Shown piece after piece: positions 1 to 56,970 of a DNA stretch of 64,000 bases. Location of the stretch: NCBI GenBank assembly GCA_951406725.2, contig OX597830.1, positions 2,356,001 to 2,420,000 on the forward strand, given 5' to 3'. Below the pieces are notes generated by a model, which saw nothing but the letters and a program-made list of their open reading frames with translations, ran no database searches and had not been told where the DNA came from. Position 1 is the first letter of the stretch. Every line of letters starts with the position of its first letter. The translations under genes were made by a program, and so were the position numbers. This DNA comes from Octopus vulgaris. Lineage: Eukaryota.

Positions 1-2190
1 TGACAGACAGCAGCATATTCCCTAATGAACAGAAAGGATGTAAACGTGGATCCTACGGTTGTAAAGATCAACTACTCATCAATAAGATGATCTTAGAAGA
101 TTGTCACAAACGACACAAAAACTTATCAATAGCCTGGATAGACTATAAAAAGGCTTTTGATAGCCTACCACATAGCTGGATTAAGAAATGCCTAGAAATG
201 TATAAGATAGCACCTACTCTGTGAAACTTTTTGTCTGTAAGTATGAGATTATGGAGAACCACATCAACTTTGAACAGTGACAATGAATCTCTAAATGCTA
301 GAGATGTAAAAATCTCATGTGGCATTTTCCAGGGTGACTCACTATCACCACTCCTCTTCTGTTTAGCCTTAATACCTCTCTCAAAACTGCTCAATGACAC
401 GCAGTACGGGTATAAAATGTTTGATAAAAATATAAATCATCTCATTTACATGGATGATTTAAAGCTCGTTGCAAAAAATGACCAACAACTCAAGGGCTTA
501 CTAGCGATTGTTAAACAATTCAGTGATGACATCAGAATGAAATTTGGCCTCGATAAATGTGCAAAAACTACCTTTATCAAAGGAAAAATGACAGAAACAT
601 CTAACGTTAACCTTGACCAGCAGCACGTCATAAAAGAGTTAGACTCAGCGGAGAGCTACAAGTACCTAGGGATAATTGAAGGAGAGGGAATAAGGCATTC
701 AGTGATGAAGGAAAGGATCAGGAGAGAATGTTATCGCAGAGTAAGAGCAATACTCAAGACAGAGCTGAATGCGAGAAACAGGATCGAAGCAATCAATGCA
801 TTAGCCATACCAGTTGTGACTTACAGTTTCAATATCGTTAACTGGTCATTTACTGAAATATGTAATCTTGACAGAAAAATACGAAAACTGTTGACAATGC
901 ATAGAATGCACCACCATAAGGCAGATACATAACGACTTTATCTGCCAAGAAAAGAGGGAGGCCGTGGACATTTACAACTGGCAATAACAATGAAGATTGC
1001 TACAATTGGCCTAGACACCTACCTGAAAAACTCTGAGGACTGGATGTTAAAACATGTCTCAAAACATGAAAACAAGAAAGCATCATACTCAGTAACAAAA
1101 CAGGCAAAGGAATATCTTTGTGAATTCCGAATACAACAAATTTCAGAATTAGAGATAGACATACAAGAAACAGGCACAGAAAAGGCTAAGCGCATGAAAA
1201 CCCGTGCTAAATCTGCGGCCTTAGATATTCTGAATGATAAATGGCAAGAAAAACCTCTCTATGGCAAATACCCAAAGAGAGCAAATAATGCAGATGTTGA
1301 CAAAGCCCTGACCCATCAATGGCTAATGGCCTCTGGCTTAAAATCTGAAACAGAGGGGTTTATCATAGCAGCTCAAGATCAATGCCTACCAACAAGAAAC
1401 TACCAGGCCAACATATTAAAGATCAGAAGCAGTCCAACGTGTCATGTATGCCAGCAATAAAATGAAACCATTGACCATGTGGTCTCCAAGTGCAGTCTTC
1501 TAGCGCCTACAGAGTATCTCAACAGACACAATAGAGCTGCACAATATATTCACTGGGTAATCTGCAAAAACCTGGATTTGCCCCATGAAAAAAACTGGTG
1601 GGAACACAAACCACCCCCAGTGCTTGAAAATGACCACATCTCACCCCTCTGGAACTTCACCATTCAAACTGACAGAAAGATAGATGCAAATAGGCCAGAC
1701 ATCATATTGAAAGACTTCAAACAAAGAACATGCCTCCTCATTGATATGACTGTCCCAATCGATATAAACGTATCTGTCAAGACCTACCAAAAACTGAGCA
1801 AATATAAAGATCTTGAAATAGAAATCAGCAAAATGTGGAAGCTGAAGACTAAAACAATACCTGTTGGCTGATAGCTACCTAACTCAGATACCAGGAAACT
1901 CCAAAATGGCAGAAATTCAAAAGATAGTGCTCATGGGAACTGCTCATATCCTACGCAAAATACTTTCTATGTAATCTCAAGGTTTAAAACAAACATAATT
2001 TCCGGTTTAAAAAAAAAAAAAATTTTTTTTTCTTTTAGACATTCATTAGTACAACACCAAAAACTCCCCCCCCAATATATGGCAGACTAGGCATAACAAC
2101 AACATGAACTTCCAACCTGTTGTCTCTTGAGGTCTCTGGGTGAGACTTGGAGCCAACTTGTACAAATATAAAGCAAAAGTCAAACATAGA
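1..2190 (+). mobile_element. R4/Dong-clade RLE non-LTR retrotransposon, family A (5' part outside window, disrupted)
   Basis: RT motifs [21 protein letters not shown] and YMDDLK; CCHC knuckle CHVC..ETIDHVVSKC; RLE motif RPDII..LIDMTVP..KLSKY. In-frame stops near 221, 930 and 1458, and a deletion near 1865. ORF ends TAA 1972-1974, then 3' UTR and (AAT)n tail. Confidence 0.93.
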
Positions 2191-2240
2191 ATAATAATAA
2201 TAATAATGATAATAATAATAATAATAATAATAATGATAAT
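2191..2240 (+). repeat. (AAT)n tract: tail/target shared by Dong family A and family B copy 1
   Basis: Direct reading; lies between the family A 3' UTR and the family B 5' end. Confidence 0.9.
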
Positions 2241-5200
2241 AAACAAAATAAAGCGATTTTTCACGAACAAACGCAAAAAAGAGCAAATTGGTCACTGAAT
2301 TTTTAACGTCACTGAACAGTTATGTCCGGAAACATGTCCACCAAAAGAAATAGAGGCGAATTTCGATCTATAAGTCTCATGCGAGTTCGATATGGCCAAT
2401 ATATTAATTCGGAGAATTCAGAAGCGGTGTCTTGACAAAAAGTTGACCCTGTACAAACAGTCCCTTCTTCTAACGTCACCGTTACAGTTGACTCTGAAAA
2501 AATGGACCCCTCTGATGTCGCCGTCAATCATTTAATGAAAACAAGCCAAAAATCATGCCGGATCGGTCATCGCCAGGGCCAACAAGGACCGCGTTACCCA
2601 GTAGGGAACCAGACTGGGGTCAAAAAGTTTGCTGCTGGAACAAACTCTCAAAAAGACGATCTACCAGGTGACCAGGACCAGAATACTTCTAACTCTGAAC
2701 TTGTAGTGACACCACCAAAAACACCACCTAAAGCAAAACGTATAAAATGGACCAGAGAGGACTATAGAGATGTGTTGAAAGCTTTTTATACAGCCCAACT
2801 AAACCCAAACAATAACCTCAGTGTACAAACATACATCTCATGGAGAAATTCAGTAGGCAACGAAGTACATAGATATATAGATGCAAATAAATTAAGTAAT
2901 GTATGCAGAGATATAATTAGAAACAAAAGACTAACTGACGCTGAAATTGACCAAATTAGGACACTAATAGCTCATGGTAGACCAAAAGAAAACAGCAACA
3001 ATGTAGACGAAATAGGTAACAGTAGCACAGAAGCCAGTGTACAAGCGGCAAATCAACTTCCCAATAGGGAAGTTAAACAAAGAATAGCGAAGACGAGAGA
3101 TTTGAAAAAAGAGGAGAACGTAGACCTTCCTCAAGAAAACCAAAATAGATATGGCATAGAATTTGAGGTGAAAAATAGAGAAAAGATTATGGAAGCAAAA
3201 GTGGACGTTATGAGACAACTCGGCAAGATTGAGCTCACTGACATGGTTAATAGAGAACCGCTACCAAAGTTTTCAAACGGCACAAGAAATAACAACACAA
3301 TCATGACATATAACGTTGCCCTAGGACAGATCTTAAGAAATAAGGGGAATGATTTGACAACCTTAAATAATCTCATTTATTCCACTGCTAAAGTAGTAAC
3401 TACCCAACTAGGTATTAAGATGACAAAGAAAAAGGCCAGGCATGTCAATGAACCTCCTAAGTGGAAAGTAGCGATACAAAAAGAGATTGAATCTCTGCGG
3501 GCGGATGTTTCAGTTCTCGATGAGCTTGCTAGAGGAGTGAATATTAAGCCGAGAAAAGCTAGAAAAATCAAACAAAAATAAAAAATCAAAGATCTCATAA
3601 ACCTCCCTGCAACCAAGGAACTGTTGAAACAACGGATACAGTTGAAAGTCCAACGGCTTAGAAGGTATGACAAAAGAAACAAATTTTATCGACAAAATAG
3701 ATTTTTTAAGACAGATGCAAAGAAATTTTATAGGGAAATTGGCAAACATAAAATACACATAGAAGATCCACCTAAGATTGAGGAAGTGGAGGAGTTCTGG
3801 AAGAAGGTATGGAGCAATGAAAAAGAGTTTAATGCTGAGGCTGACTGGATAGAACGTGAGAAAGAGAGACTGGATGAACTTGAAGAACAGAAATGGGAAG
3901 CAATAGGAATAGAGGAGCTAAGGTGTGTCCTTAGGAAGGCTCATAAATGGAAAACCCCAGGACTGGATTGGATCCCTAACTTCTGGCTGAATTGTTTGAC
4001 AGAGGTACCCGAAAATCTCGCTGCATCTCTGTCTGATGTCATTCAGAACCCAGAGCAAATACCTGCTTGGCTGACTGAAGGAACCACCTACCTATTACCT
4101 AAAACTGAAGACACAAAATACCCAAAGAATTACCGGCTAATAACATGTCTCAACACCACCTACAAAATCCTCACATCCATAATAACAGAGAGAATGTACG
4201 CTTTCCTTGAATAAAGCTCTATCCTTCCACAAGCTCAAAAAGGTTGTAAAAGAAACTCTTATGGGTGCAAAGACCAATTGCTCATAAACAGAATGATTGT
4301 AGAGAATTGCCGGAGCAAAAACATAAACCTGAGTATGGCATGGATAGACTACAGGAAAGCGTTTGACAGTGTCCCACATAAATGGATACTCAAGGCCCTT
4401 GAGATATACAAGATCTCTCCTGTCGTCTCAAAATTCTTACAGAATAGCATGACCATGTGGAACACACGTCTCTTTCTAAGCCATAGTAATGGGATGAGCC
4501 AGTCCAACAGCATCAACATCAAACGAGGCATCTTTCAAGGTGACTCCCTCTCTCCATTACTTTTTTGCATGGCACTGATCCCACTCTCAAAAGAATTGGA
4601 TAGTACCAGATATGGGTACAAAGTTTTTAGTAAATCAAGAAACCACCTTTTCTATATGGACGACCTAAAACTGTTTGCCAGGAATGACCAAGAGCTAGAA
4701 GGGCTGCTAACAACTGTTAAAGAGTTTAGCAACGATATCGGAATGGATTTTGGCCTTGATAAGTGTGCTAAAGCAACTTTTGTAAGAGGCAATCTCAGGC
4801 AAACAGATTCTGTTAAATTAGATATTGACACTACCATCAAGGAACTTGACCCACAAGAAAGTTACAAATACCTAGGAATCAACGAAGGAGATGGTATACA
4901 TTATGCTACTATGAAGGAAAAAATAAGAAAGGAATACTATAGGAGAATAAGGCTTGTACTGAAGACTGAACTCAACTCCAAAAATTGCATTGAGGCCATT
5001 AATACCCTGGCACTTCCAGTAGTCCAGTACAGTTTTAACATCATTAACTGGAACCTTACGGAACTCCAACGCTTGGACAGGAAGACAAGTAAATTACTGA
5101 CATTCAAGAACACCCTAAGGCAGATGTAGACTGCCTGTACCTACCTAGAAGCAGCGGGGGGAGAGGAATGATGCAATTAAAGCTGTGCTATAAGACCTCC

Positions 5201-6353
5201 ACTGTAGGAATGAACAGGTACCTATCTAATACAAAGGACTGGATGCGGCGACTTGTGTGCGAACACGAAAGCAGCAAAAAGCTGCAATTCATTGTCAAGG
5301 AAGCTTATAAGTTCGAAAGGGAACTAGACATTAACCTTGAATCAGATGAAGAGCCGGAAACCACTACTACCAAGCAAGCAAAGCGAATCAAGCAGACTGC
5401 AAAAAAGAACAGGCAGAATCAAATTGAGAGGCAGTGGAGCCAGAATCCCCTGCATGGACAATATATTCTCCGAAGCCAAAATGCTGATGTAGACCAAGCA
5501 ACAACCCATCAGTGGCTGAAGAGTTCAGGATTGAAAGCAGAGACTGAAGGCTTCATACTGGCAGCACAAGATCAAAGTTTGTTTACCAGAAATTACCAGG
5601 CTAGCGTTCTCCGAAATTGTACTGACCCTAAATGCAGATTCTGCAACACATTTGATGAAACAATAGACCATCTCGTTTCGGGATGTCCTGTGCTGACACC
5701 AAACAAATACAAAAATCGCCACGATAGGGTAGGACAGTATATACATTGGAAGATATGTAAACACTACAAATTCGGCACTCCTGCTAACTGGTATGAACAC
5801 CATCCTCAGCCAGTTGTTGAAAGTAAAAATGTCACCATCCTCTGGGATTTTCCAGTCAACACTGACAGAACGATCAAGGCTAATCGACCAGACATAATTG
5901 TTAAAGACAGGGAAGAAAATACCTGCAGACTAATAGAGGTAAGCGTCCCCACTGATAACAATATATCTGTAAAGGAATTTGACAAACTTAGTAAATATAA
6001 GGACCTGGAAATCGAAATACAAAAGATGTGGAATCTTAAAACAAAAACTGTTCCTGTTATTGTAGATGCCCTAGGTATGATAAAAAAGGGATGTCAGAAA
6101 CACTTAGACAATATCCCTGGAGAACCATGTCTCAAGGAAATCCAAAAGATTGTGCTAACAAGTACTGCCCAAATCCTTAGAAAAACCCTATCAATGTAAA
6201 TGTTTGTGTTTGTATTACATGGAAATATTTCTCTACTTCCCCTCCCCAAGCTTTCAGCTATATTTCAACAACTCTTAACCTTCACTTGCCCTAGGGCGCT
6301 GGGTGTGCCCCGGCAACTGATTGCATCAAACATGCAGATTAAAAGTAAATGAC
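2241..6353 (+). mobile_element. R4/Dong-clade RLE retrotransposon, family B copy 1 (apparently full length, defective)
   Basis: N-terminal Myb-like region (RIKWTREDY..W..KLSN), RT (QGDSLSP, YMDDLK), CCHC (CRFC..ETIDHLVSGC) and RLE (RPDII..KLSKY). Bounded by (AAT)n on both sides; same 5' and 3' ends as copy 2. Confidence 0.95.
2502..6199 (+). pseudogene. Dong B copy 1 polyprotein ORF, broken by two stops and a frameshift
   Basis: ORF track pieces 2502-3581, 3624-4214, 4278-5129 and 5168-6199. TAA at 3579-3581 and 4212-4214; frameshift near 5108 just before HPKADVD. Confidence 0.93.
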
Positions 6354-6417
<64 letters not shown>

Positions 6418-6441
6418 GTAATAATAATAATAATAATGGTA

Positions 6442-6479
<38 letters not shown>

Positions 6480-6530
6480 CATAATAATAATAATAATAAT
6501 GGTAATGGTAATATTAACGACAACATTAAT
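6354..6530 (+). repeat. Imperfect (AAT)n microsatellite (Dong tail/target)
   Basis: Direct reading. Confidence 0.95.
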
Positions 6531-7457
6531 ATTACCTTCAAGATTCAATAACAATAAATGTAGTTACAATTCCCACCTAAGACCATGTATTTATTTAAAT
6601 ATAATTTAGTTATTAAAAATTGTATAACGAATCTATGAAATGTATGATATTAAATGGTATTACAAATATATTACATTTAAATTATTGATTATCAATGCTC
6701 AAGTCAAATATTCTGAAACTTATTAAATACGATTTAATGAAATTCCATGAAATAGTTTGCTTTAGTTGTGACAATTTTGTTGTGTGAATTAATATGACAA
6801 ATCCAGATAACGAGTAGAAGAAGCTTGATGGTTTTCCACCACATAACTACACTGATTCTGTCTGTAGTGTGGCAACAAAAATCTAGGTGGCTCAGTCTAT
6901 TCAACTCATGTGCCAAATTCCCTTAAATTCCTCTCACATCATTGAATCTCGTGCAAATGAGGTTCTACAAGAATAATGATTAGCTACCAACTGCAGAAAA
7001 AAGAGAAATGGATGTGTGTGTGGTGGAGGGTGTGCTGCTGGTAGTGGTGGTGTGTGATGGTGGTGGTGGTGGTAGTGGTGTCTGGTGCTACTGGTGGGTG
7101 GGGGTGCTAGTTTAATTTTGGTGGTAAATGTATGTCTGTATTAAGTTTATCACTTAAGTGTTCATAAATTAGGATGCACACATGGATAATGTACTCCTAG
7201 CTATACTATGACCAAATATTTAATTTTAAAAAATGGTGGAAAGTTCGGATCTGGACAAAAGAAAGTGTGCTAGATATTTGTTGGCTGCACTCACGATATT
7301 CCTTGTGTGGTCATTTAGTGGTCATTATATTTGCCTGGGATATGTTTAACAATCACAAAAGTAGAATCCAAGCTTGGTAACTATTTGCTGTAGAATGCAT
7401 CTTGCATACACAAATAATACAGGAAAATATTTATAAAAACATCTGTAGTAAATTTTA

Positions 7458-15088: not shown

Positions 15089-15175
15089 AAGGGTGAAAAG
15101 GAACACACGAGTTGATATATATGAAAAAACAAGTAAAAAATAGAAAATGCTAAAATAATTTTATAGTGAACATTT

Positions 15176-15213
15176 CAGTACCGGTTTCGGTCATTTTGAG
15201 ACCTTTTCAACTG
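15176..15213 (-). ncRNA. Minimal hammerhead ribozyme, U3-A8 core variant (pLTR copy)
   Basis: Reverse complement of 17802-17839. Confidence 0.75.
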
Positions 15214-15916
15214 TAACGATTAAATAATTAAATTTAGAAAAATTAGAAGAAAAGTTTTTTTAAAAGAATATTTCTATAGTAGTGTTCAGATTTAAGTGGC
15301 ATTCTGCCTTTCTCTGACTCCCTTGTTTGCACTTGTGTGTTCGAGGTAGTTGTGAGTTCTCGGTAGGGTAGTAGAGGGAAGGCTGGTGAGGAAAGGGGGT
15401 GGGAGAATCTGGGAGTGCCCTGATGGTCGTATTTTGAATGGTCAGTGGCGGCTGGCAGTCTCAGTTCAATTCAGGATTGTTTATAGAATTAGCGTAGGTG
15501 TTATACTAAAAAACATTAGTGACAAACTTAAGGGGTAGGGGGTGAGAAGAAGAAGAAGAAGAAGAAGAAGAAGAAGAAGGAGAAGGAGAAGATGATGGTG
15601 ATGGTGGTGATGATTATGACGACGATGATGATGATAACGATGATGATGAAGAAGAAGAAGAAGAAGAAGAAGAAGAAGAAGAAGAAGAAGAAGGAGAAGG
15701 AGAAGATGGTGGTGATGATGGTGGTGATGATGATGACGCCGATGATGATGATAACGATGATGATGAAGAAGAAGAAGAAGAAAAAAACAGAGAAGGGAGA
15801 ATATGAATGGGTGTAAATATAGCTATGAAGGGGCTGATTAGTAATGGATTCTATGGAGTGTAGTATTTGTGTGTGTATATATATATTTTTTTCTTTTATT
15901 CTAAAGTTGAGGTATA

Positions 15917-16354
15917 TTAATTGTTTGTCGTAGACCCGTTAAGAAGTGGCTTGTATTTTGTAATAAAGAGATTTTCTTTACTTATTCTTTGTCTCGAGGT
16001 TGTATCGTCCCTAAATTGGTAGAGGGGGAAAATTCTGAAGTTTGGTGTTTTTTTGTTGGCGCAAGTATCTATGTGTTGGCTAAAAGCTATTTTTCTGTTT
16101 TGGGGAATTTTTATCTGGGATCTGTGCAGGGCCATTCGTTTACGCAAACCATTTTTTGTTTGGCCTATGTACTGCTCTTGACACCCGGAGCAGGTTAGTG
16201 AGTATATTAGGTTCTCCGAAGCACATGTGAAGTTGCTTTTCACTGTAAACCGTTGTCCCTGTTTGAAGGAGAACTCCGAACCCTCGATTAGATAGTCGCA
16301 TATCCCGCAATTGGGTCTTCCACATTTTTTTACTGTCGGCTTCTGTGTTGAAGA
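15917..16354 (-). CDS. GIY-YIG endonuclease of Neptune-like PLE, inverted copy (partial)
   Basis: CGRPNCGIC linker, LIYSLTCSGC-QYIGQT, RKRMALH; nearly identical to the plus-strand arm. Confidence 0.85.
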   Translation of the reverse strand, partial: SSTQKPTVKKCGRPNCGICDYLIEGSEFSFKQGQRFTVKSNFTCASENLIYSLTCSGCQEQYIGQTKNGLRKRMALHRSQIKIPQNRKIAFSQHIDTCANKKTPNFRIFPLYQFRDDTTSRQRISKENLFITKYKPLLNGSTTNN

Positions 16355-17105
16355 AGAACTAAAAGATACCCTAATCACCAGGAACTATCCACCTTCACTT
16401 ATTGACAAGTGCATTCAACGTGCCCTTCAACTTAACATCAAGGAACTGAGACATCCCAAATCAAAGAAAAACTTACAACCAAAAGCCTTACCATACATCT
16501 CCACACACAACCCTCTCAATAACGAAGCCTTCGACACCATCCTCCACAACATACCCCTCCTAAAAAAAGACCACAGAATGAACACAATCCTCCAAACACA
16601 CACGATCATAAAAAGCAAAAGACAGCCTAGATCCATGAAAAGTCTCCTTACACAAGCCCGAATTCACTCTTCAACACAGAAGCCGACAGTAAAAAAATGT
16701 GGAAGACCCAATTGCGGGATATGCGACTATCTAATCGAGGGTTCGGAGTTCTCCTTCAAACAGGGACAACGGTTTACAGTGAAAAGCAACTTCACATGTG
16801 CTTCGGAGAACCTAATATACTCACTAACCTGCTCCGGGTGTCAAGAGCAGTACATAGGCCAAACAAAAAATGGTTTGCGTAAACGAATGGCCCTGCACAG
16901 ATCCCAGATAAAAATTCCCCAAAACAGAAAAATAGCTTTTAGCCAACACATAGATACTTGCGCCAACAAAAAAACACCAAACTTCAGAATTTTCCCCCTC
17001 TACCAATTTAGGGACGATACAACCTCGAGACAAAGAATAAGTAAAGAAAATCTCTATATTACAAAATACAAGCCACTTCTTAACGGGTCTACGACAAACA
17101 ATTAA
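16352..17105 (+). CDS. RT thumb, Cys linker and GIY-YIG endonuclease of Neptune-like PLE (5'-truncated, uninterrupted)
   Basis: RNYPPSLI..LPYISTHNP..KRQPRSMKSLLT (PLE thumb), Cx4Cx2C linker, LIY..CxxC..YIG, E-x2-YI, LN. Confidence 0.9.
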
Positions 17106-17801
17106 TATACCTCAACTTTAGAATAAAAGAAAAAATATATATATACACACACAAATACTACACTCCATAGAATCCATTACTAATCAGCCCCTTCATAGCT
17201 ATATTTACACCCATTCATATTCTCCCTTCTCTGTTTTTTTCTTCTTCTTCTTCTTCATCATCATCGTTATCATCATCATCGGCGTCATCATCATCACCAC
17301 CATCATCACCACCATCTTCTCCTTCTCCTTCTTCTTCTTCTTCTTCTTCTTCTTCTTCTTCTTCTTCATCATCATCGTTATCATCATCATCGTCGTCATA
17401 ATCATCACCACCATCACCATCATCTTCTCCTTCTCCTTCTTCTTCTTCTTCTTCTTCTTCTTCTTCTTCTCCACCCCCTACCCCTTAAGTTTGTCACTAA
17501 TGTTTTTTAGTATAACACCTACGCTAATTCTATAAACAATCCTGAATTGAACTGAGACTGCCAGCCGCCACTGACCATTCAAAATACGACCATCAGGGCA
17601 CTCCCAGATTCTCCCACCCCCTTTCCTCACCAGCCTTCCCTCTACTACCCTACCGAGAACTCACAACTACCTCGAACACACAAGTGCAAACAAGGGAGTC
17701 AGAGAAAGGCAGAATGCCACTTAAATCTGAACACTACTATAGAAATATTCTTTTAAAAAACTTTTCTTCTAATTTTTCTAAATTTAATTATTTAATCGTT
17801 A

Positions 17802-17839
17802 CAGTTGAAAAGGTCTCAAAATGACCGAAACCGGTACTG
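17802..17839 (+). ncRNA. Minimal hammerhead ribozyme, U3-A8 core variant
   Basis: cag-TTGAAAA-ggtc(tcaaaat)gacc-GAAA-ccgg-TA-ctg. Stem I cag/ctg; stem II ggtc/gacc; palindromic stem III ACCGGT; GUA triplet. Confidence 0.78.
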
Positions 17840-18001
17840 AAATGTTCACTATAAAATTATTTTAGCATTTTCTATTTTTTACTTGTTTTTTCATATATAT
17901 ATATATATATGTATAAGGGTGAAAAGGAACACACGAGTCGATATATATGAAAAAACAAGTCAAAAATAGAAAATGCTAAAGTAATTTTATAGTGAACATT
18001 T

Positions 18002-38060: not shown

Positions 38061-38461
38061 GGAAATTTCGAACCTGGGTTCTCATTTCCGACATATTTTT
38101 CAATGTTATCATTACTATTATTATTATTATTATTATCATTATTCAGGTCACTGCTTGGAATCAAACTCAGAATCCTAGGGTTAGTATCCTGCGCTCTTAA
38201 CCAATATACCATATGCCTACGAGCATATGGCGTAGTGGTTAAGAGTGCAAGCTATTAACCCTAAGATTCGGAGTTTGATTCCAAGCAGTGACCTGAATAA
38301 TAATAATAATAATGATAGTAATGATAACATTGAAAAATATCTTAGGAATGAGAACTCAGGTTCAAAATTTCTCCAAGACATCTAATGGAGGCTAGAGGGT
38401 ATATCAGCCAAAACAAGATGAGGACAAATATCCATCAAATGTAAATAATGTAAATAATGTA
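38061..38461. mobile_element. Fold-back insertion of a tRNA-headed unit homologous to the 3' end of the Penelope at 45668-47119
   Basis: Arms 38061-38217 and 38223-38372 are inverted about the tRNA 5' end. A box TGGCGTAGTGG, B-box-like AGTTTGATTCC. Decayed hammerhead CTAATGGA-ggct..agcc-AAAA at 38382-38413. Tail matches 47060-47105. Confidence 0.88.
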
Positions 38462-42190: not shown

Positions 42191-42369
42191 TTTAGGTTTT
42201 ATATATATATATATTTAAATAGAAGTTACTTAGAAAAGGATGTGTGGCTTTTGATTATAAAATAATATAAAAAATATGCAAATATATGCATATATACATA
42301 CATATATATACATACCTACATATATATGTATATATACATGCATATATGGGTAGAGGACATAAAAAAAAA

Positions 42370-42435
42370 CGATACCTCAACTTCAATTCCCACTATCCAT
42401 ACAGTGTAAAGAGAGGGATTGCTCAGCACCTAAAA
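42370..42435 (+). mobile_element. ~65-bp fragment of the Penelope/Poseidon RT
   Basis: Matches 46181-46245 (RYLNFNSHxPYxVKRGIAQHLK). Confidence 0.8.
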
Positions 42436-45410: not shown

Positions 45411-45667
45411 AGTGTGTATGTATGTATGTGTGTGTGTGTATAAAATAAATATAGTTGCAGTTATGATTATACATAGAACCCAGTACAAAACTTAACTGAA
45501 ATCTCCCTTGCTGCCTTTCATTAAAATAACTTATTATTTTCCTTAGCAGGCAGTTTACTTGGAAGTTCCACCCATGTAGCTTTCATCAGACTGTGTGAAG
45601 GCAACAGGAAACTTTAAAGTACCTGTCAGCTTTTCCATGTTACATTAAAATACTATCCTGATATCAG

Positions 45668-46879
45668 ATGGGCCGCATATCTTTTGTAAGTCTGTTCACC
45701 AAAGTCCCAACTGATGAAGCACTATCGGTGATTCAAGAGAAACTAGTGACAGAGACCCATCTAAAAGAATGCACTAATATACCAATAAGAAAGTTGAGGG
45801 AAATGTTGACCTTCAGTGTAGAAACTACCTACTTCAGTATGGACACTGATATATATTGACAAGAAGAGGGTTTAGCTATGGGTTTGCCATTATCACCAAT
45901 AATAGCCAATATATACATGTAATACTTTGAGAATTTGGCTTTAGGATCAACACCACTAAATCCAACCTTATGGCTGCGATATGTTGATGACACCTTCATA
46001 CTCTGGCCCCACCAGGAAGATGTCCAAGTGCTGTTAGATCATGTGAACTCAATAAAGCCATCCCGTACAGTTCAAATGGAAAAAGGAAAAGACAATCAGC
46101 TGGCATTCCTGGACGTATTAATAACACGTACCAAGTATGGATTCAGGACATTCGTATACCACAGGCTGACCTTCACTGGACGATACCTCAACTTTAATTC
46201 CCACCATCCATACAATGTAAAGAGAGGGATTGCTCAGCACCTAAAACATCATGCAAAGAATATAAGTAGCGATCATGATACAGAAGATGAAGAAATGATC
46301 AAGCTCAGTAACAGTCTGTTAAGTAACAACTACCCCCAAAACACTCCAATTGTCCACTCCAATTATGAAGACAAGAGAGGATGAAACTAATGAATTGTCC
46401 ACAGTCTGTCTACCCTATGTGAAAGGCCTCACCGAAAAGATTCAAAAGATATGTGGCACATATGACATCAGGACAGTATTCAAGAGTAATACAACACTTT
46501 GCAAATATCTCCTTCGAGTAAAACCACCAATAGAAAAGAATATGACCCAAAGACTGTGTGTACTCCATTCCATGCAAGTATGGTAGGCCATACAAAGCTG
46601 AAACATGCCACCCACTCAAAATATGGGTAGAGGAACGCTGTGACATGAGGATATATTGATAAGTCAGATATAGCTGATCATGTATGGAAAAATGGAGACC
46701 ACCTCTCCCTGTGGGATGAAGTTAAAATAACAGACAGAGAACACCACTGGAAAATACGAAAACTAAAAGAAGCAGCAGAAATGCTAGGACACAACAATCT
46801 CCTAAGCAGACCAAGTGCAGGTATGAACAGCATATGGGAACCGGTACTAAGGACGGATATAAAAATATTAGATTTATAA
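45668..46879 (+). pseudogene. Penelope/Poseidon-type PLE RT plus GIY-YIG, 5'-truncated and disrupted
   Basis: SLFTKVP, Q..GLAMGLPLSPIIANIYM, WLRYVDDTF, LAFLDVLI, TGRYLNFNSHHP, LPYVKG, CVYSIPC, IADHVW, RKLKEA; stop TAA 46877-46879. Confidence 0.9.
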
Positions 46880-46900
46880 GCCCTAAAATTCACTCCTTAA

Positions 46901-47119
46901 TTGCCCACGGGCATATGGCATAGTGGTTAAGAGCGTGGACTATTAACCCCAAGATTCCGAGTTCAATTCCAAACCTGAATAATAATAATAATAACATTGA
47001 AAAATACCTTAGGAATGAGAACCTAGGTTCGAAATTTCCAAAAGACAGGAGGATATAACAACAAACAAGATGAAGACAAATATCCACCAAATGTAAATAA
47101 TGTACATAATTCCTCATCT
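46901..47119 (+). mobile_element. tRNA-derived head plus (AAT)n and pLTR-like tail directly downstream of the Penelope ORF
   Basis: A box TGGCATAGTGG at 46916-46926, B box AGTTCAATTCC at ~46960-46970. Body homologous to 38221-38461; the hammerhead region is largely deleted in this copy. Confidence 0.8.

Positions 47120-51072: not shown

Positions 51073-51137
<65 letters not shown>
50805..51137 (+). mobile_element. Naiad-like PLE, left part (RT thumb C-terminus and start of poly-Asn linker)
   Basis: IWLNIPF..ILEKNFPASHKY..ISRRSVRISYSTLSNMATII..NSK resembles the WFNPPF..HFP..KISYS..NM thumb motif; continues after the Dong insertion. Confidence 0.8.
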
Positions 51138-51140
<3 letters not shown>

Positions 51141-54100
51141 CAAAAACAAAGCTATTTTTCACGAACAAACGCAAAAAAGAGCAAATTGGTCACTGAATTT
51201 TTAACGTCACTGAACAGTTATGTCCAGAAACATGTCCACCAAAAGAAATAGAGGCGAATTTTGATCTGTAAGTCTCATGCGAATTCGAGATGACCAATAT
51301 ATTAATTCAGAGAATTCTGAAGCGGTGTCTTGACAAAATGTTGACCCTGTACAAACAGTCCCTTCTTCTAACGTCACTGTCACAGTTGACTCTGACAAAA
51401 TGGACCCCTCTGATGTCGCCGTCAATCATTTAATGAAAACAAGCCAAAAATCATGCCGGATCAGTCATCGCCCGGGACAACAAGGAACGCGATACACAGT
51501 AGGGAACCAGACTGGGGTCGAAAAGTTTGCTGCTGGAACAAACTCTCAAAAAGACGATCTACCAGGTGACCAGGACCAGAATACTTCTAACTCTGGACTT
51601 GTAGTGACACCACCAAAAATACCACCTAAAGCAAAATGTATAAAATGGACCAGAGAGGACTATAGAGATGTGTTGAAAGCTTTTTATACAGCCCAACTAA
51701 ACCCAAACAATAACCTCAGTGTACAAGCATACATCTCATGGAGAAATTCAGTAGGCAACGAAGTACGTAGATATATAGATGCAAATAAATTAAGTAATGT
51801 ACGCAGAGATATAATTAGAAACAAAAGACTAACTGACGCTGAAATTGACCAAATTAGGACACTAATAGCTCATGGTAGACCAAAAGAAAACAGCAACAAT
51901 GTAGACGAAATAGGTAACAGTAGCACAGAAGCCAGTGTACAAGCGACAAATCAACTTCCCAATAGGGAAGTTAAACAAAGAATAGCGAAGACGAGAGATT
52001 TGAAAAAAGAGGAGAACGTAGACCTTCCTCAAGAAAACCAAAATAGATATGGCATAGAATTTGAGGTGAAAAATAGAGAAAAGATTATGGAAGCAAAAGT
52101 GGACGTTATGAGACAACTCAGCAAGATTGAGCTCACTGACATGGTTAATAGAGAACCGCTACCAAAGTTTTCAAACGGCACAAGAAATAACAACACAATC
52201 ATGACATATAACGTTGCCCTAGGACAGATCTTAAGAAATAAGGGGAATGATTTGACAACCTTAAATAATCTCATTTATTCCACTGCTAAAGTAGTAACTA
52301 CCCAACTAGGTATTAAGATGACAAAGAAAAAGGCCAGGCATGTCAATGAACCTCCTAAGTGGAAAGTAGCGATACAAAAAGAGATTGAATCTCTGCGGGC
52401 GGATGTTTCAGTTCTCGATGAGCTTGCTAGAGGAGTGAATATTAAGCCGAGAAAAGCTAGAAATATCAAGCAAAAATATAAAATCAAAGATCTCATAAAC
52501 CTCCCTGCAACTAAGGAACTGTTGAAACAATGGATACAGTTGAAAGTCCAACGGCTTAGAAGGTATGACAAAAGAAACAAATTTTATCGACAAAATAGAT
52601 TTTTTAAGACAGATGCAAAGAAATTTTATAGGGAAATTGGCAAACATAAAATACACATAGAAGATCCACCTAAGATTGAGGAAGTGGAGGAGTTCTGGAA
52701 GAAGGTATGGAGCAATGAAAAAGAGTTTAATGCTGAGGCTGACTGGATAGAACGTGAGAAAGAGAGACTGGATGAACTTGAAGAACAGAAATGGGAAGCA
52801 ATAGGAATAGAGGAGCTAAGGTGTGTCCTTAGGAAGGCTCATAAATGGAAAACCCCAGGACTGGATTGGATCCCTAACTTCTGGCTGAATTGTTTGACAG
52901 AGGTACCCGAAAATCTCGCTGCATCTCTCTCTGATGTCATTCAGAACCCAGAGCAAATACCTGCTTGGCTGACTGAAGGAACCACCTACCTATTACCTAA
53001 AACTGAAGACACAAAATACCCAAAGAATTACCGGCTAATAACATGTCTCAACACCACCTACAAAATCCTCACATCCATAATAACAGAGAGAATGTACGCT
53101 TTCCTTGAATAAAACTCTATCCTTCCACAAGCTCAAAAAGGTTGTAAAAGAAACTCTTATGGGTGCAAAGACCAATTGCTCATAAACAGAATGATTGTAG
53201 AGAATTGCCGGAGCAAAAACATAAACCTGAGTATGGCATGGATAGACTACAGGAAAGCGTTTGACAGTGTCCCACATAAATGGATACTCAAGGCCCTTGA
53301 GATATACAAGATCTCTCCTGTCGTCTCAAAATTCTTACAGAATAGCATGACCATGTGGAACACACGTCTCTTTCTAAGCCATAGTAATGGGATGAGCCAG
53401 TCCAACAGCATCAACATCAAACGAGGCATCTTTCAAGGTGACTCCCTCTCTCCATTACTTTTTTGCATGGCACTGATCCCACTCTCAAAAGAATTGGATA
53501 GTACCAGATATGGGTACAAAGTTTTTAGTAAATCAAGAAACCACCTTTTCTATATGGACGACCTAAAGCTGTTTGCCAGGAATGACCAAGAGCTAGAAGG
53601 GCTGCTAACAACTGTTAAAGAGTTTAGCAACGATATCGGAATGGATTTTGGCCTTGATAAGTGTGCTAAAGCCACTTTTGTAAGAGGCAATCTCAGGCAA
53701 ACAGATTCTGTTAAATTAGATATTGACACTACCATCAAGGAACTTGACCCACAAGAAAGTTACAAATACCTAGGAATCAACGAAGGAGATGGTATAGATC
53801 ATGCTACTATGAAGGAAAAAATAAGAAAGGAATACTATAGGAGAATAAGGCTTGTACTGAAGACTGAACTCAACTCCAAACATTGCATTGAGGCCATTAA
53901 TACCCTGGCACTTCCAGTAGTCCAGTACAGTTTTAACATCATTAACTGGAACCTTACGGAACTCCAACGCTTGGACAGGAAGACAAGAAAATTACTGACA
54001 TCCAAGAACACCCTAAGGCAGATGTAGACCGCCTGTACCTACCTAGAAGCAGCGGGGGGAGAGGAATGATGCAATTAGAGCTGTGCTATAAGACCTCCAC

Positions 54101-55250
54101 TGTAGGAATGAACAGGTACCTATCTAATACAAAGGACTGGATGCTGCGACTTGTGTGCGAACACGAAAGCAGCAAAAAGCTGCAATTCATTGTCAAGGAA
54201 GCTTATAAGTTCGAAAGGGAACTAGACATTAACCTTGAATCAGATGAAGAGCCGGAAACCACTACTACCAAGCAAGCAAAGCGAATCAAGCAGACTGCAA
54301 AAAAGAACAGGCAGAATCAAATTGAGAGGCAGTGGAGCCAGAATCCCCTGCATGGACAATATATTCTCCGAAGCCAAAATGTTGATGTAGACCAAGCAAC
54401 AACCCATCAGTGGCTGAAGAGTTCAGGATTGAAAGCAGAGACTGAAGGCTTCATAATGGCAGCACAAGATCAAAGCTTGTTTACCAGAAATTATAAGGCT
54501 AGCGTTCTCCGAAACGGTACTGACCCTAAATGCAGATTCTGCGACACATTTGATGAAACAATAGACCATCTCGTTTCGGGATGTCCTGTGCTGACACCAA
54601 ACAAATACAAAAATCGCCACGATAGGGTAGGACAGTATATACATTGGAAGATATGTAAACACTACAAATTCGGCACTCCTGCTAACTGGTATGAACACCA
54701 TCCTCAGCCAGTTGTTGAAAGTAAAAATGTCACCATCCTCTGGGATTTTCCAGTCAACACTGACAGAACGATCAAGGCTAATCGACCAGACATAATTGTT
54801 AAAGACAGGGAAGAAAATACCTGCAGACTAATAGAGGTAAGCGTCCCCACTGATAACAATATATCTGTAAAGGAATTTGACAAACTTAGTAAATATAAGG
54901 ACCTGGAAATCGAAATACAAAAGATGGGGAATCTTAAAACAAAAACTGTTCCTGTTATTGTAGGTGCCCTAGGTATGATAAAAAAGGGATGTCAGAAACA
55001 CTTAGACAATATCCCTGGAGAACCATGTCTCAAGGAAATCCAAAAGATTGTGCTAACAAGTACTGCCCACATCCTTAGAAAAGCCCTATCAATGTAAATG
55101 TTTGTGTTTGTATTACATGGAGATATTTCTCTACTTCCCTTCCCAAGCTTTCAGCTATATTTCAACAACTCTTAACCTTCACTTGCCCTAGGGTGCTGGG
55201 TGTGCCCCGGCAAGTGATTGCATCAAACATGCAGATTAAAAGTAAATGAC
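51138..55250 (+). mobile_element. R4/Dong family B copy 2, inserted in the (AAT)n of the PLE
   Basis: Collinear with 2241-6353 at a constant offset of 48898 across the ORF; (AAT)n on both sides. Confidence 0.96.
51400..55097 (+). pseudogene. Dong B copy 2 polyprotein ORF (one stop, one frameshift)
   Basis: ORF pieces 51400-53112, 53176-54027 and 54066-55097; TAA at 53110-53112; frameshift near 54006. Confidence 0.93.
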
Positions 55251-55253
55251 AAC

Positions 55254-55296
<43 letters not shown>

Positions 55297-55299
55297 GTA

Positions 55300-55340
<41 letters not shown>

Positions 55341-55378
55341 TAGTAATGATAATAATAATAATAATAATAGTAACAATA

Positions 55379-55450
<72 letters not shown>

Positions 55451-56970
55451 GTTATAATAAAAATAATATTAATAATGATGATGACAATAATAATAATTAT
55501 AATAATAACAACATTGATGTAAATAGTGATAATAACAATACCAATAATATAGGTAGTATAGATAAACGTATGGTAGGTGATGATGGTGAGGATGGATTAA
55601 TAACTAGTTACCCTAATTTGCATAACAACGTGATTACTAATAATGAAAGTAATATTAATACTAATAATAACTTAAATAACAGTAATGTAAGTGAACTGTC
55701 CTTAAATAATTCCAGTACCGGACACTATCTTCCCAGTTGTAATTGTAGGATTAGATCAAAATGTCCGGTATCTGGTCGTTGTTCGGTCCAAAACGTAATT
55801 CATAAATGCACGATAATAACTTCTAGCAATAGCTTTCTTTATTTCGGATGTTCGGTGGATCTTAAAAGACGTCTTAACAATCATTTTTTCTCTTTTGGGC
55901 TCAAACATAAAGCAGGTTGCACAACACTATCTAGCAAAATTTGGGAACTAAAAACAAAGAATATAGATTTCAACCTAAAATGGGATATAGTTAGAAGGGC
56001 GCAACCTTATAGAAATAGTAGGGATGGTTGTCAACCTTGTTCTATGGAAACTTATGAAATTTTAAAACATCAGAGTAATACAAATCTGTTGAATAACCAT
56101 CTGGAGTTGGGAGCATCTTGTATACATTGCACAACCCAAACGTTTAAATACTTTAAATAATTCTGTGAGTATTCCTATATTTTTCAAATTTTAATTCTTT
56201 ATAATCGAATAAGAAGAAATATACTATACTATACTAGCTTTCAATTTAACATTCATAGATGACTAAAAAAACATCACTGCAAACCTGAAATTGAAATGTT
56301 TTTCTAAAATTAATCTAGCTTTAAAATTAATAAGTCTTTCCCCCAGTTATAAAATACTATGCCTACTCATAATAATAAGTGATAGGTTTTTTTCCCCTCT
56401 TTTTCTCTAAATTATACTCTCTGTGAATGGGATTAAAACCATTTGACATTGACCTAGTTTCTCTCACCAAATAGCAGTAATTGGCATTTATTAGTGGCAA
56501 TTGCTGTCTTCAACATGAATTCCTTTTATGGAGTCCTGAAACCTCCTTTACCCCATTTCTACAATTAAAAAATCTTTATTGCTTCTATCCTTACAGCAGT
56601 TAGGAACAACCATATCTTAGTCAGTGAGTGGAAGGATTTCACTACCTCATATGTTCTTAAAATTTAAATCCACATCTTTGTCTTTATATCTACCTTCTCT
56701 ATACTGATTTGAACATTTTTGTATTAATGGAAAACCTCTATAATTGGCTGATGAGTGCTCAGCATTTTAAAACTGTTGTAATACTTACAACATTTAATAA
56801 AATGATGTAGTACGAAACGATCGTACCAAATTACCGTAGTCATTCTTGTTGCTTATTTTGATTATAATCACCCCACGGATTTTTATGGATAACACCATAC
56901 AAAATTCTGGTGCATCTGGTGCATCTAAATTAAGTACCATATTCATTTGAATATAAATTTTTGCTGAACT
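55300..56970 (+). mobile_element. Naiad-like PLE, right part (Asn-rich linker, CxCx5C, GIY-YIG, pLTR)
   Basis: CNCRIRSKCP..GRC, VIH..LYFG, RLNNH..SF, LSSKIWELK, CQPCxxE, LLN..CIH. Stop at 56160; 3' UTR with hammerhead; ends at (TA)n. Confidence 0.88.
56741..56833 (+). ncRNA. Type I hammerhead ribozyme with extended stem II (Naiad-like pLTR)
   Basis: taattgg-CTGATGA-gtgct...agtac-GAAA-cgatcg-TA-ccaaatta. Stem II extends via catttta/taaaatg and tgttgtaa/ttacaaca; palindromic stem III ACGATCGT. Confidence 0.88.

Follow-up and report, generated by a model that had tools for sequence, protein, structure and literature searches.

A tRNA-derived head fixed in the pLTR of a coding Penelope/Poseidon family in Octopus vulgaris, and its possible role as a Pol III promoter

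A tRNA-like sequence lies immediately downstream of a decayed reverse transcriptase (RT) gene in the 2.8-Gb genome of Octopus vulgaris, within a 64,000-nucleotide stretch of contig OX597830.1 (assembly GCA_951406725.2, positions 2,356,001 to 2,420,000, forward strand), hereafter called the window. This locus raises the question of whether the tRNA-like sequence is a stray SINE or a part of the retrotransposon, and, in the latter case, whether it directed transcription of the element. Pol III heads are a mark of non-autonomous SINEs and TRIMp3 elements, and retrotransposons that encode proteins are generally considered to depend on Pol II, or on co-transcription by Pol I as in R2. A Pol III-headed coding PLE, if true, would break the Pol II rule and would show where SINE-like repeats with a hammerhead can come from.

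The element in the window (45687-47119) is of the Penelope/Poseidon type, dead and truncated at its 5' end, with all of its parts on the plus strand. Its broken, 5'-truncated RT - GIY-YIG ORF (45687-46879) shares 61% identity with the 569-aa open frame of a natural copy, L319, which is the longest open frame among the family copies examined. The window ORF contains several stops and frameshifts, and its longest open stretch is 153 aa. This copy is not autonomous, contrary to the proposal in an earlier note on this DNA. That note had also placed the ORF start at 45668, but this ATG is spurious and sits in a minus-strand fragment (45649-45686) that is a reverse copy of 46443-46480 and represents the usual PLE 5' inversion. 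The coordinates that it gave for the ORF stop at 46879 and the start of the tRNA-like unit at 46909 were reproduced, as was the mini-hairpin. The stop codon TAA occupies 46877-46879 and is followed by a 29-nt spacer (46880-46908). The mini-hairpin TGCCC-AC-GGGCA (46902-46913), which has its sole exact match in the 64-kb window at this position, marks the edge of the dominant 5' boundary of family copies and the hinge of their fold-back junctions. The tRNA-Arg(ACG)-like head (46909-46977) contains an A box (46916-46926) and a B box (46959-46970), and in the window copy 6 nt are missing behind the B box. A textbook A+B box pattern has a single match across both strands of the 64 kb, at 46916. 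The head is followed by an (AAT)n tract of variable length (46978-46994), an ATG (47015-47017) that opens the ORF when a window-type pLTR lies upstream in tandem and whose frame passes through the hammerhead and tail, a remnant of the family's minimal type-I hammerhead (47040-47059), and the 3' part of the pLTR with the start of an optional tail (47060-47119). The hammerhead was overlooked in the earlier note because the window copy has lost most of it through two deletions near 47047-47057. A lone 67-bp piece of the family's RT region, 95% identical to 46180-46246, is located at 42369-42435.

The linkage between head and ORF was examined across the genome. A query containing only ORF sequence (46560-46860) yielded 2,395 candidates, 40 of which were scored and 30 fetched, comprising the window and 29 other copies. 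The head sequence is kept in 28 of these 29; L057 has lost it by deletion, the first half of the head is replaced in L055, and several copies have small deletions. The distance from stop to head is 29 nt in 17 of the 21 measurable ORF-selected copies. In a second set, chosen with a distant protein, all 30 loci fetched of 95 listed belong to the window family, and of the 22 whose sequence extends to the end of the ORF, 20 have the head. One copy, L122, is a partial tandem in the order ORF end, pLTR, ORF, and pLTR, with the head at both ends. The search for copies with the unit at both ends thus yielded partial tandems; no intact copy was found among the family copies examined. A scan of 1.28 Mb of loci picked for the window family gave 316 hits of the family head, of which 296 lead into pLTR sequence and the other 20 fall at locus edges or long AAT runs, are fold-back stubs or truncated, or are stray; no head shared with another SINE body was found in these loci. 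One rival explanation of the locus is a chance SINE insertion beside the single window copy. The density of tRNA-derived SINEs in the examined loci would favor such an insertion, but it is refuted by the presence of the head in both ORF-selected sets and is at odds with the continuation of the head into the pLTR and never into another SINE body, so that its probability is close to nil. Most copies of the ORF retain the tRNA unit, contrary to what a chance insertion would entail, and the proposal that the unit is a constant part of the pLTR was upheld in both linkage and spacing. That this coding PLE family carries a tRNA-derived head as a fixed part of its pLTR can hardly be doubted.

The family pLTR consists, in order, of the mini-hairpin, the tRNA-Arg(ACG)-like A and B boxes, (AAT)n, the ATG of the ORF, a minimal hammerhead, and the tail. 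The pLTR ATG opens a frame that in L350, L359, and L409 crosses the hammerhead and tail and joins the ORF without interruption. The predicted type-I hammerhead has the core boxes, stem II, and a palindromic remnant of stem III, and it matches the minimal type as described in the accessible text of PMC4209133; Rfam gave no hammerhead hit in the window or copies. An exact hammerhead 38-mer occurs 1,281 times in the genome. The copies differ from the column majority by a median of 5.6% (83 segments, biased toward best matches). An RT domain was identified in L126 (Pfam RVT_1, E value of 5.6e-10), the window pieces being too short to match. Pfam GIY-YIG gave no hit for L128 or the window pieces; the C terminus aligns with the GIY-YIG-type motifs of relatives, some homologues carry PF01541, and the family protein has no Cys-rich linker before the EN. 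The family also shows partial tandems such as L122 and inverted, 5'-truncated copies, as PLEs do. An Anolis sagrei protein matches the whole query at 40%, sequencing runs from six organisms contain parts of the unit, and scans of viral contigs recovered no relatives of the family. The same unrelated repeat sits directly upstream of (AAT)n in L368, L364, and L389, and a LINE 3' end is located there in L387, which indicates that the AAT tract of the pLTR is an insertion target.

ARAGORN made no tRNA call in the window or in six family copies, and Rfam had no hit for the head; its tRNA kinship rests on alignment to the tRNA genes of this genome. Among the eight tRNA types compared, Arg(ACG) is the best parent for 18 of 30 copies, with a median z of 7.2 against 5.1 for the next best, and it exceeds a z of 4 in 26 of the 30. 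In a ranking with a profile of 25 heads, for which the tRNA-Arg loci were fetched on purpose, tRNA-Arg genes are the top nonfamily hits and other SINE heads follow closely, and a related SINE head may, to judge from these alignments, have been the direct donor. At G000:C2:211887730-211907126, over 20 tRNA-Arg(ACG)-type matches form an array, in many cases with a spacing of about 206 bp. In their commonest state across copies, the A and B boxes fit the consensus at tRNA spacing and the acceptor and T stems do not pair, and the head does not form a functional tRNA cloverleaf; single decayed copies often lose one of the two boxes. The retention of boxes with loss of stems is the pattern of SINE heads. 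RNase P cutting requires paired acceptor and T stems, and cutting by this enzyme at the 5' end of the head was set aside since both stems are unpaired. Conserved promoter boxes with a lost fold are also described for Helenus in the consulted part of PMC10886601. The spacer at 46880-46908 is a decayed inverted copy of the first ~20 nt of the head, the imperfect match lying in the 3' part of the spacer, which suggests a fold-back junction as the route by which the family acquired the head.

An exact 31-mer of the head occurs 1,639 times in the genome, and the first 90 listed positions on C1 were fetched, which gave 91 heads, including two tandem near-duplicates. Of these, 82 are solo and nine run on into native upstream sequence, six or seven of them by more than 200 nt. 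Fifty-eight heads end within 21 nt around the hinge, six more are fold-backs scored just upstream, and 18 end inside the head; L270 starts exactly at the head's first G and has an 8-nt duplication. At the other end, two clusters of 3' ends lie about 30 nt apart, with 19 long-tail and 44 short units. An upstream inverted arm accompanies 66 of the 91 heads. Among copies with an intact stem, 18 of the 24 that were head-selected, one of them a doubtful case, carry the fold-back signature, in which bases outside the stem complement the head, versus 0 of the 23 that were ORF-selected. Many fold-backs extend for only a few bases and then switch to another arm or flank. Palindromes at pLTR 5' ends have already been described, and self-priming proposed, for A. 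vaga PLEs (PMC3846280), and the sharp boundary and short stubs seen here are direct evidence, from the genome itself, of the way in which head-to-head junctions of PLEs arise. Two solo pLTRs of the window family lie head to head at 38061-38458 as a fold-back pair, with the hinge loop at 38219-38220. The earlier note had called this pair a 38-kb palindrome; 38 kb is its position, the pair measures ~400 bp, and a self-comparison of the window revealed no 38-kb palindrome. The pair has the same hinge as the mini-hairpin, as claimed, but with two substitutions. The idea that the mini-hairpin seeds fold-back priming gained support from its place at the hinge of the junctions. Contrary to what had been supposed, the pair does not belong to a separate non-autonomous family, since of 162 columns compared between solo (65) and ORF-linked (43) pLTRs, one differs at a P value of <0.01, with the same commonest letter there; a separate solo subfamily was accordingly rejected, and the two form one family.

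A direct pLTR-ORF junction is present in 53 copies, most of which are truncated inside the pLTR. Five copies (L350, L359, L360, L369, and L392) start at the head boundary and continue into the ORF, one of them for at least 917 nt, which indicates the existence of an RNA that extended from the head into the ORF. L379 and L122 begin further upstream than the head boundary, which indicates that longer read-through RNAs also existed.

The sense strand of the family is poor in T runs. Over 2,272 sense columns, there are no shared T4 runs, compared with 11 T3 runs and 26 A4 runs. The 19 long copies, which are not independent of one another, contain 20 T4 runs versus 45 expected, and the absence of T4 from the ancestral state has a P value of 0.04 to 0.12, which is weak alone. 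As controls, ten metagenome relatives have 4 to 19 T4 runs in their ORFs, L348 has three, L349 has none in 939 nt, and an RTE element of the window has one in 1,910 nt. L348 and L349 are eukaryotic PLE contigs in two bacterial MAG records, where host contamination is likely. Four box-less pLTR stretches contain 32 to 46% T and 1 to 11 T4 runs, whereas the two box-bearing pLTRs contain no T4 run.

The second box-bearing pLTR belongs to L306:2008-5064 (JGI contig JGI1357J11328_10009043), an intact head-to-tail Poseidon-type PLE with a 2,791-nt unit and a 901-aa open frame of ~40% identity to the window family. In both of its repeats, the pLTR has its own A+B-box unit between the stop and the hammerhead, before an AAT run. 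This pair was produced in none of 20,000 shuffles, with a pattern written after the data had been seen. The L306 head is longer than that of the window family and shows a weak likeness to Thr and Arg tRNAs (z of 4.5 to 4.7, best of eight). The 2,791 nt contain two T4 and no T5 runs, with no T4 in the pLTR. Among 16 related loci from other sources, L306 is the only one with the A+B pair, several of the other 15 being without a whole pLTR. The closest relatives of the window family share 57 to 72% identity with it. In an RT tree of 195 sequences, which contains no named clade references, the common clade of the window family and L306 comprises 54 of the 195 RTs, including the box-less L305. A sister relationship between the window family and L306 is not supported by this tree, which suggests separate captures of an A/B-box unit. 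The intact tandem of L306 makes the promoter, hammerhead, and priming testable.

On balance, the head likely served as an internal Pol III promoter and thereby fixed where the template RNA of the element began, a reading drawn from sequence comparison. Transcription by Pol III would begin a few bases ahead of the head; in a tandem, it would continue across (AAT)n, the hammerhead, and the T-run-poor ORF. RT would then initiate at an internal site, the tail, as it does in vitro in Anolis Poseidon (PMC11167929). A start at the first tail would give solo units of ~260 to 300 bp ending at the RNA 5' end, which would account for the bulk of the copies. There, head-to-head palindromes would arise when the end of the cDNA folds back on the mini-hairpin or pairs with a second cDNA. 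The Pol III reading is favored by the linkage in both ORF-selected sets, the constant spacing, and the L122 tandem; by the retention of boxes without stem pairing and the predominance of Arg(ACG) as parent; by the dominant 5' boundary at the head and the five copies extending from it into the ORF; and by the contrast in fold-back signature between head- and ORF-selected copies. The lack of shared T4 runs, the occurrence in L306 of boxes, AAT, a hammerhead, and few T4 runs, and the T-rich pLTR stretches with T4 runs in four box-less relatives favor it as well. Against it, L122 and L379 derive from RNAs begun upstream of the head, the T4 absence is weak alone and not unique, as the counts for the window RTE and L349 show, and there are only two box-bearing families. 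Two unstranded RNA-seq runs of a related organism (X22 and X23) and contig sets X18 and X19 showed no pile of transcription starts or ends, and depth over the unit in the two runs tracks copy number. Pol III transcripts lack a cap, and the enzyme is regarded as too weakly processive for autonomous elements (PMC10886601). In viruses, ribozymes are reported to drive cap-independent initiation (PMC13725137), but this route is not directly applicable to the window family because the ATG precedes the hammerhead cut.

The same features can be read with Pol II as the transcribing enzyme. The head, whether from a tRNA or a SINE, may have entered the 3' untranslated region of the master element once and stayed there as a fixed passenger; Pol II would transcribe the element, from a TATA-like stretch at the stop codon or by read-through, and the boundary would reflect either the site where Pol II starts or a snap-back of RT at the hairpin. 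The D. virilis Penelope pLTR, the sole dissected pLTR promoter, is of the Inr/DPE type and in this respect unlike the window family (PMC2377424), and A. vaga pLTRs have a TATA, an Inr, and 5' palindromes, with no tRNA mentioned in the accessible portion of PMC3846280. In the window family, two motifs upstream of the head could, on sequence grounds, serve Pol II, namely, the TATA-like stretch, which lies ~30 nt from the boundary, and an Inr-like TCACT, and the weakness of the T4 depletion also suits this explanation. However, both boxes were kept while pairing was lost, only 1 of 91 heads (L225) starts near the Inr-like site, L350 and L360 begin at the head, and a second family, L306, has boxes in the same place. 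The hairpin, which could itself stop RT, is weak as well, its fold being no more stable than those of shuffled sequences (z of -0.3 to -1.3 in L324). We regard a passenger head as rather unlikely. A division of labor, with Pol III making only a short, SINE-like pLTR RNA copied by the element's own RT and Pol II supplying the mRNA and ORF-length templates, appears more doubtful still. It accords with the excess of solo heads, with the exact start and duplication of L270, and with the 1,639 exact head words against 155 pLTR-ORF junction matches, two counts of different stringency. It is countered by the five copies that run from the head boundary into the ORF, by the lack of separate subfamilies of solo and ORF-linked units, and by the absence of a T4 terminator after the pLTR inside the ORF.

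The octopus SINEs OR1 and OR2 (Ohshima and Okada 1994) also have tRNA-derived heads and are reportedly of Arg origin. Unlike these SINEs, which are cited as CORE-SINEs (PMC4824008 and PMC4758252, both in part), the window unit has a hammerhead and a PLE tail; the two are set apart here by their descriptions. The unit also differs from a conventional SINE, which has its own body and a LINE-derived tail, in being a PLE pLTR without a subfamily split. In overall organization, the family resembles the Anolis carolinensis Poseidon PAc (Frangieh et al. 2024; PMC11167929, available in part), in which RT and GIY-YIG lie in one ORF, partial tandems and 5' inversions occur, the ORF starts in the pLTR ahead of the cut of a minimal hammerhead, RT starts internally at the tail, and two 3' ends lie ~30 nt apart. 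Unlike Penelope/Poseidon PLEs, the window family has a pLTR with tRNA-like A/B boxes and without T runs. The TRIMp3 elements Cassandra, Helenus, and Ajax likewise carry a small-RNA-derived Pol III promoter in a terminal repeat, with the boxes kept and the fold lost (Kojima 2024; PMC10886601, the accessible part). However, those are short, noncoding, non-autonomous elements with two LTRs, a PBS, and a PPT, whereas the window family encodes a PLE RT and its repeats are pLTRs; the same source argues that the autonomous partners of TRIMp3 elements must use Pol II. Schistosoma Sm-alpha also has a Pol III promoter followed by a type-I hammerhead, and its upstream unit transcribes the downstream one. 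Unlike the window unit, the pLTR of an RT-encoding element, Sm-alpha is a noncoding tandem repeat with an efficient hammerhead and no RT partner identified in the consulted parts of PMC6765202 and PMC8490949. Animal non-LTR retrozymes share pLTR-derived short units and type-I hammerheads with the window family but form tandem arrays, with no tRNA head reported in the sections available of PMC7229834 and Li et al. 2026 (10.64898/2026.07.22.740005), whereas the solos of the window family are dispersed or head to head and form no subfamily of their own.

No tRNA-headed autonomous or coding PLE was found in the parts of the literature compared, a comparison that lay outside Repbase and Dfam. The accessible portions of Craig 2021 (PMC8557442), the retrozyme preprint 10.64898/2026.07.22.740005, the octopus repeat annotation PMC13282606, and SINEBase mention none. 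The family may already be catalogued without being read as a tRNA-headed PLE, and tens of thousands of its short copies (an estimate from 1,639 exact 31-mers and 6 to 9% divergence) may be filed as SINEs though they are PLE ends. We put forward, tentatively and as a possibility short of probable, a coding retrotransposon transcribed wholly by Pol III from a captured tRNA promoter, with a 2.5-kb ORF purged of terminators and cap-free translation. Such an arrangement would have arisen at least twice among Poseidon PLEs, from tRNA-Arg in the window family and from another tRNA in L306, and would offer a direct route from a PLE end to hammerhead-bearing SINE-like repeats such as Sm-alpha.

The window contains further elements. 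A second, young PLE family, presumably Neptune-like, is located at 15115-17900 as an inverted repeat with arms of 99% identity; it has a Pfam GIY-YIG hit after a Cys-rich linker and no A/B pair. Two 4.35-kb direct copies of a LINE with a restriction-like endonuclease end, which we take to be R4/Dong-like, lie at 2190-6534 and 51087-55438, are 97.8% identical, and each end in (AAT)n. A GIY-YIG-like frame with a Cys-rich motif, on the minus strand at 55246-56160 beside an (AAT)n tract, probably represents a third PLE family.
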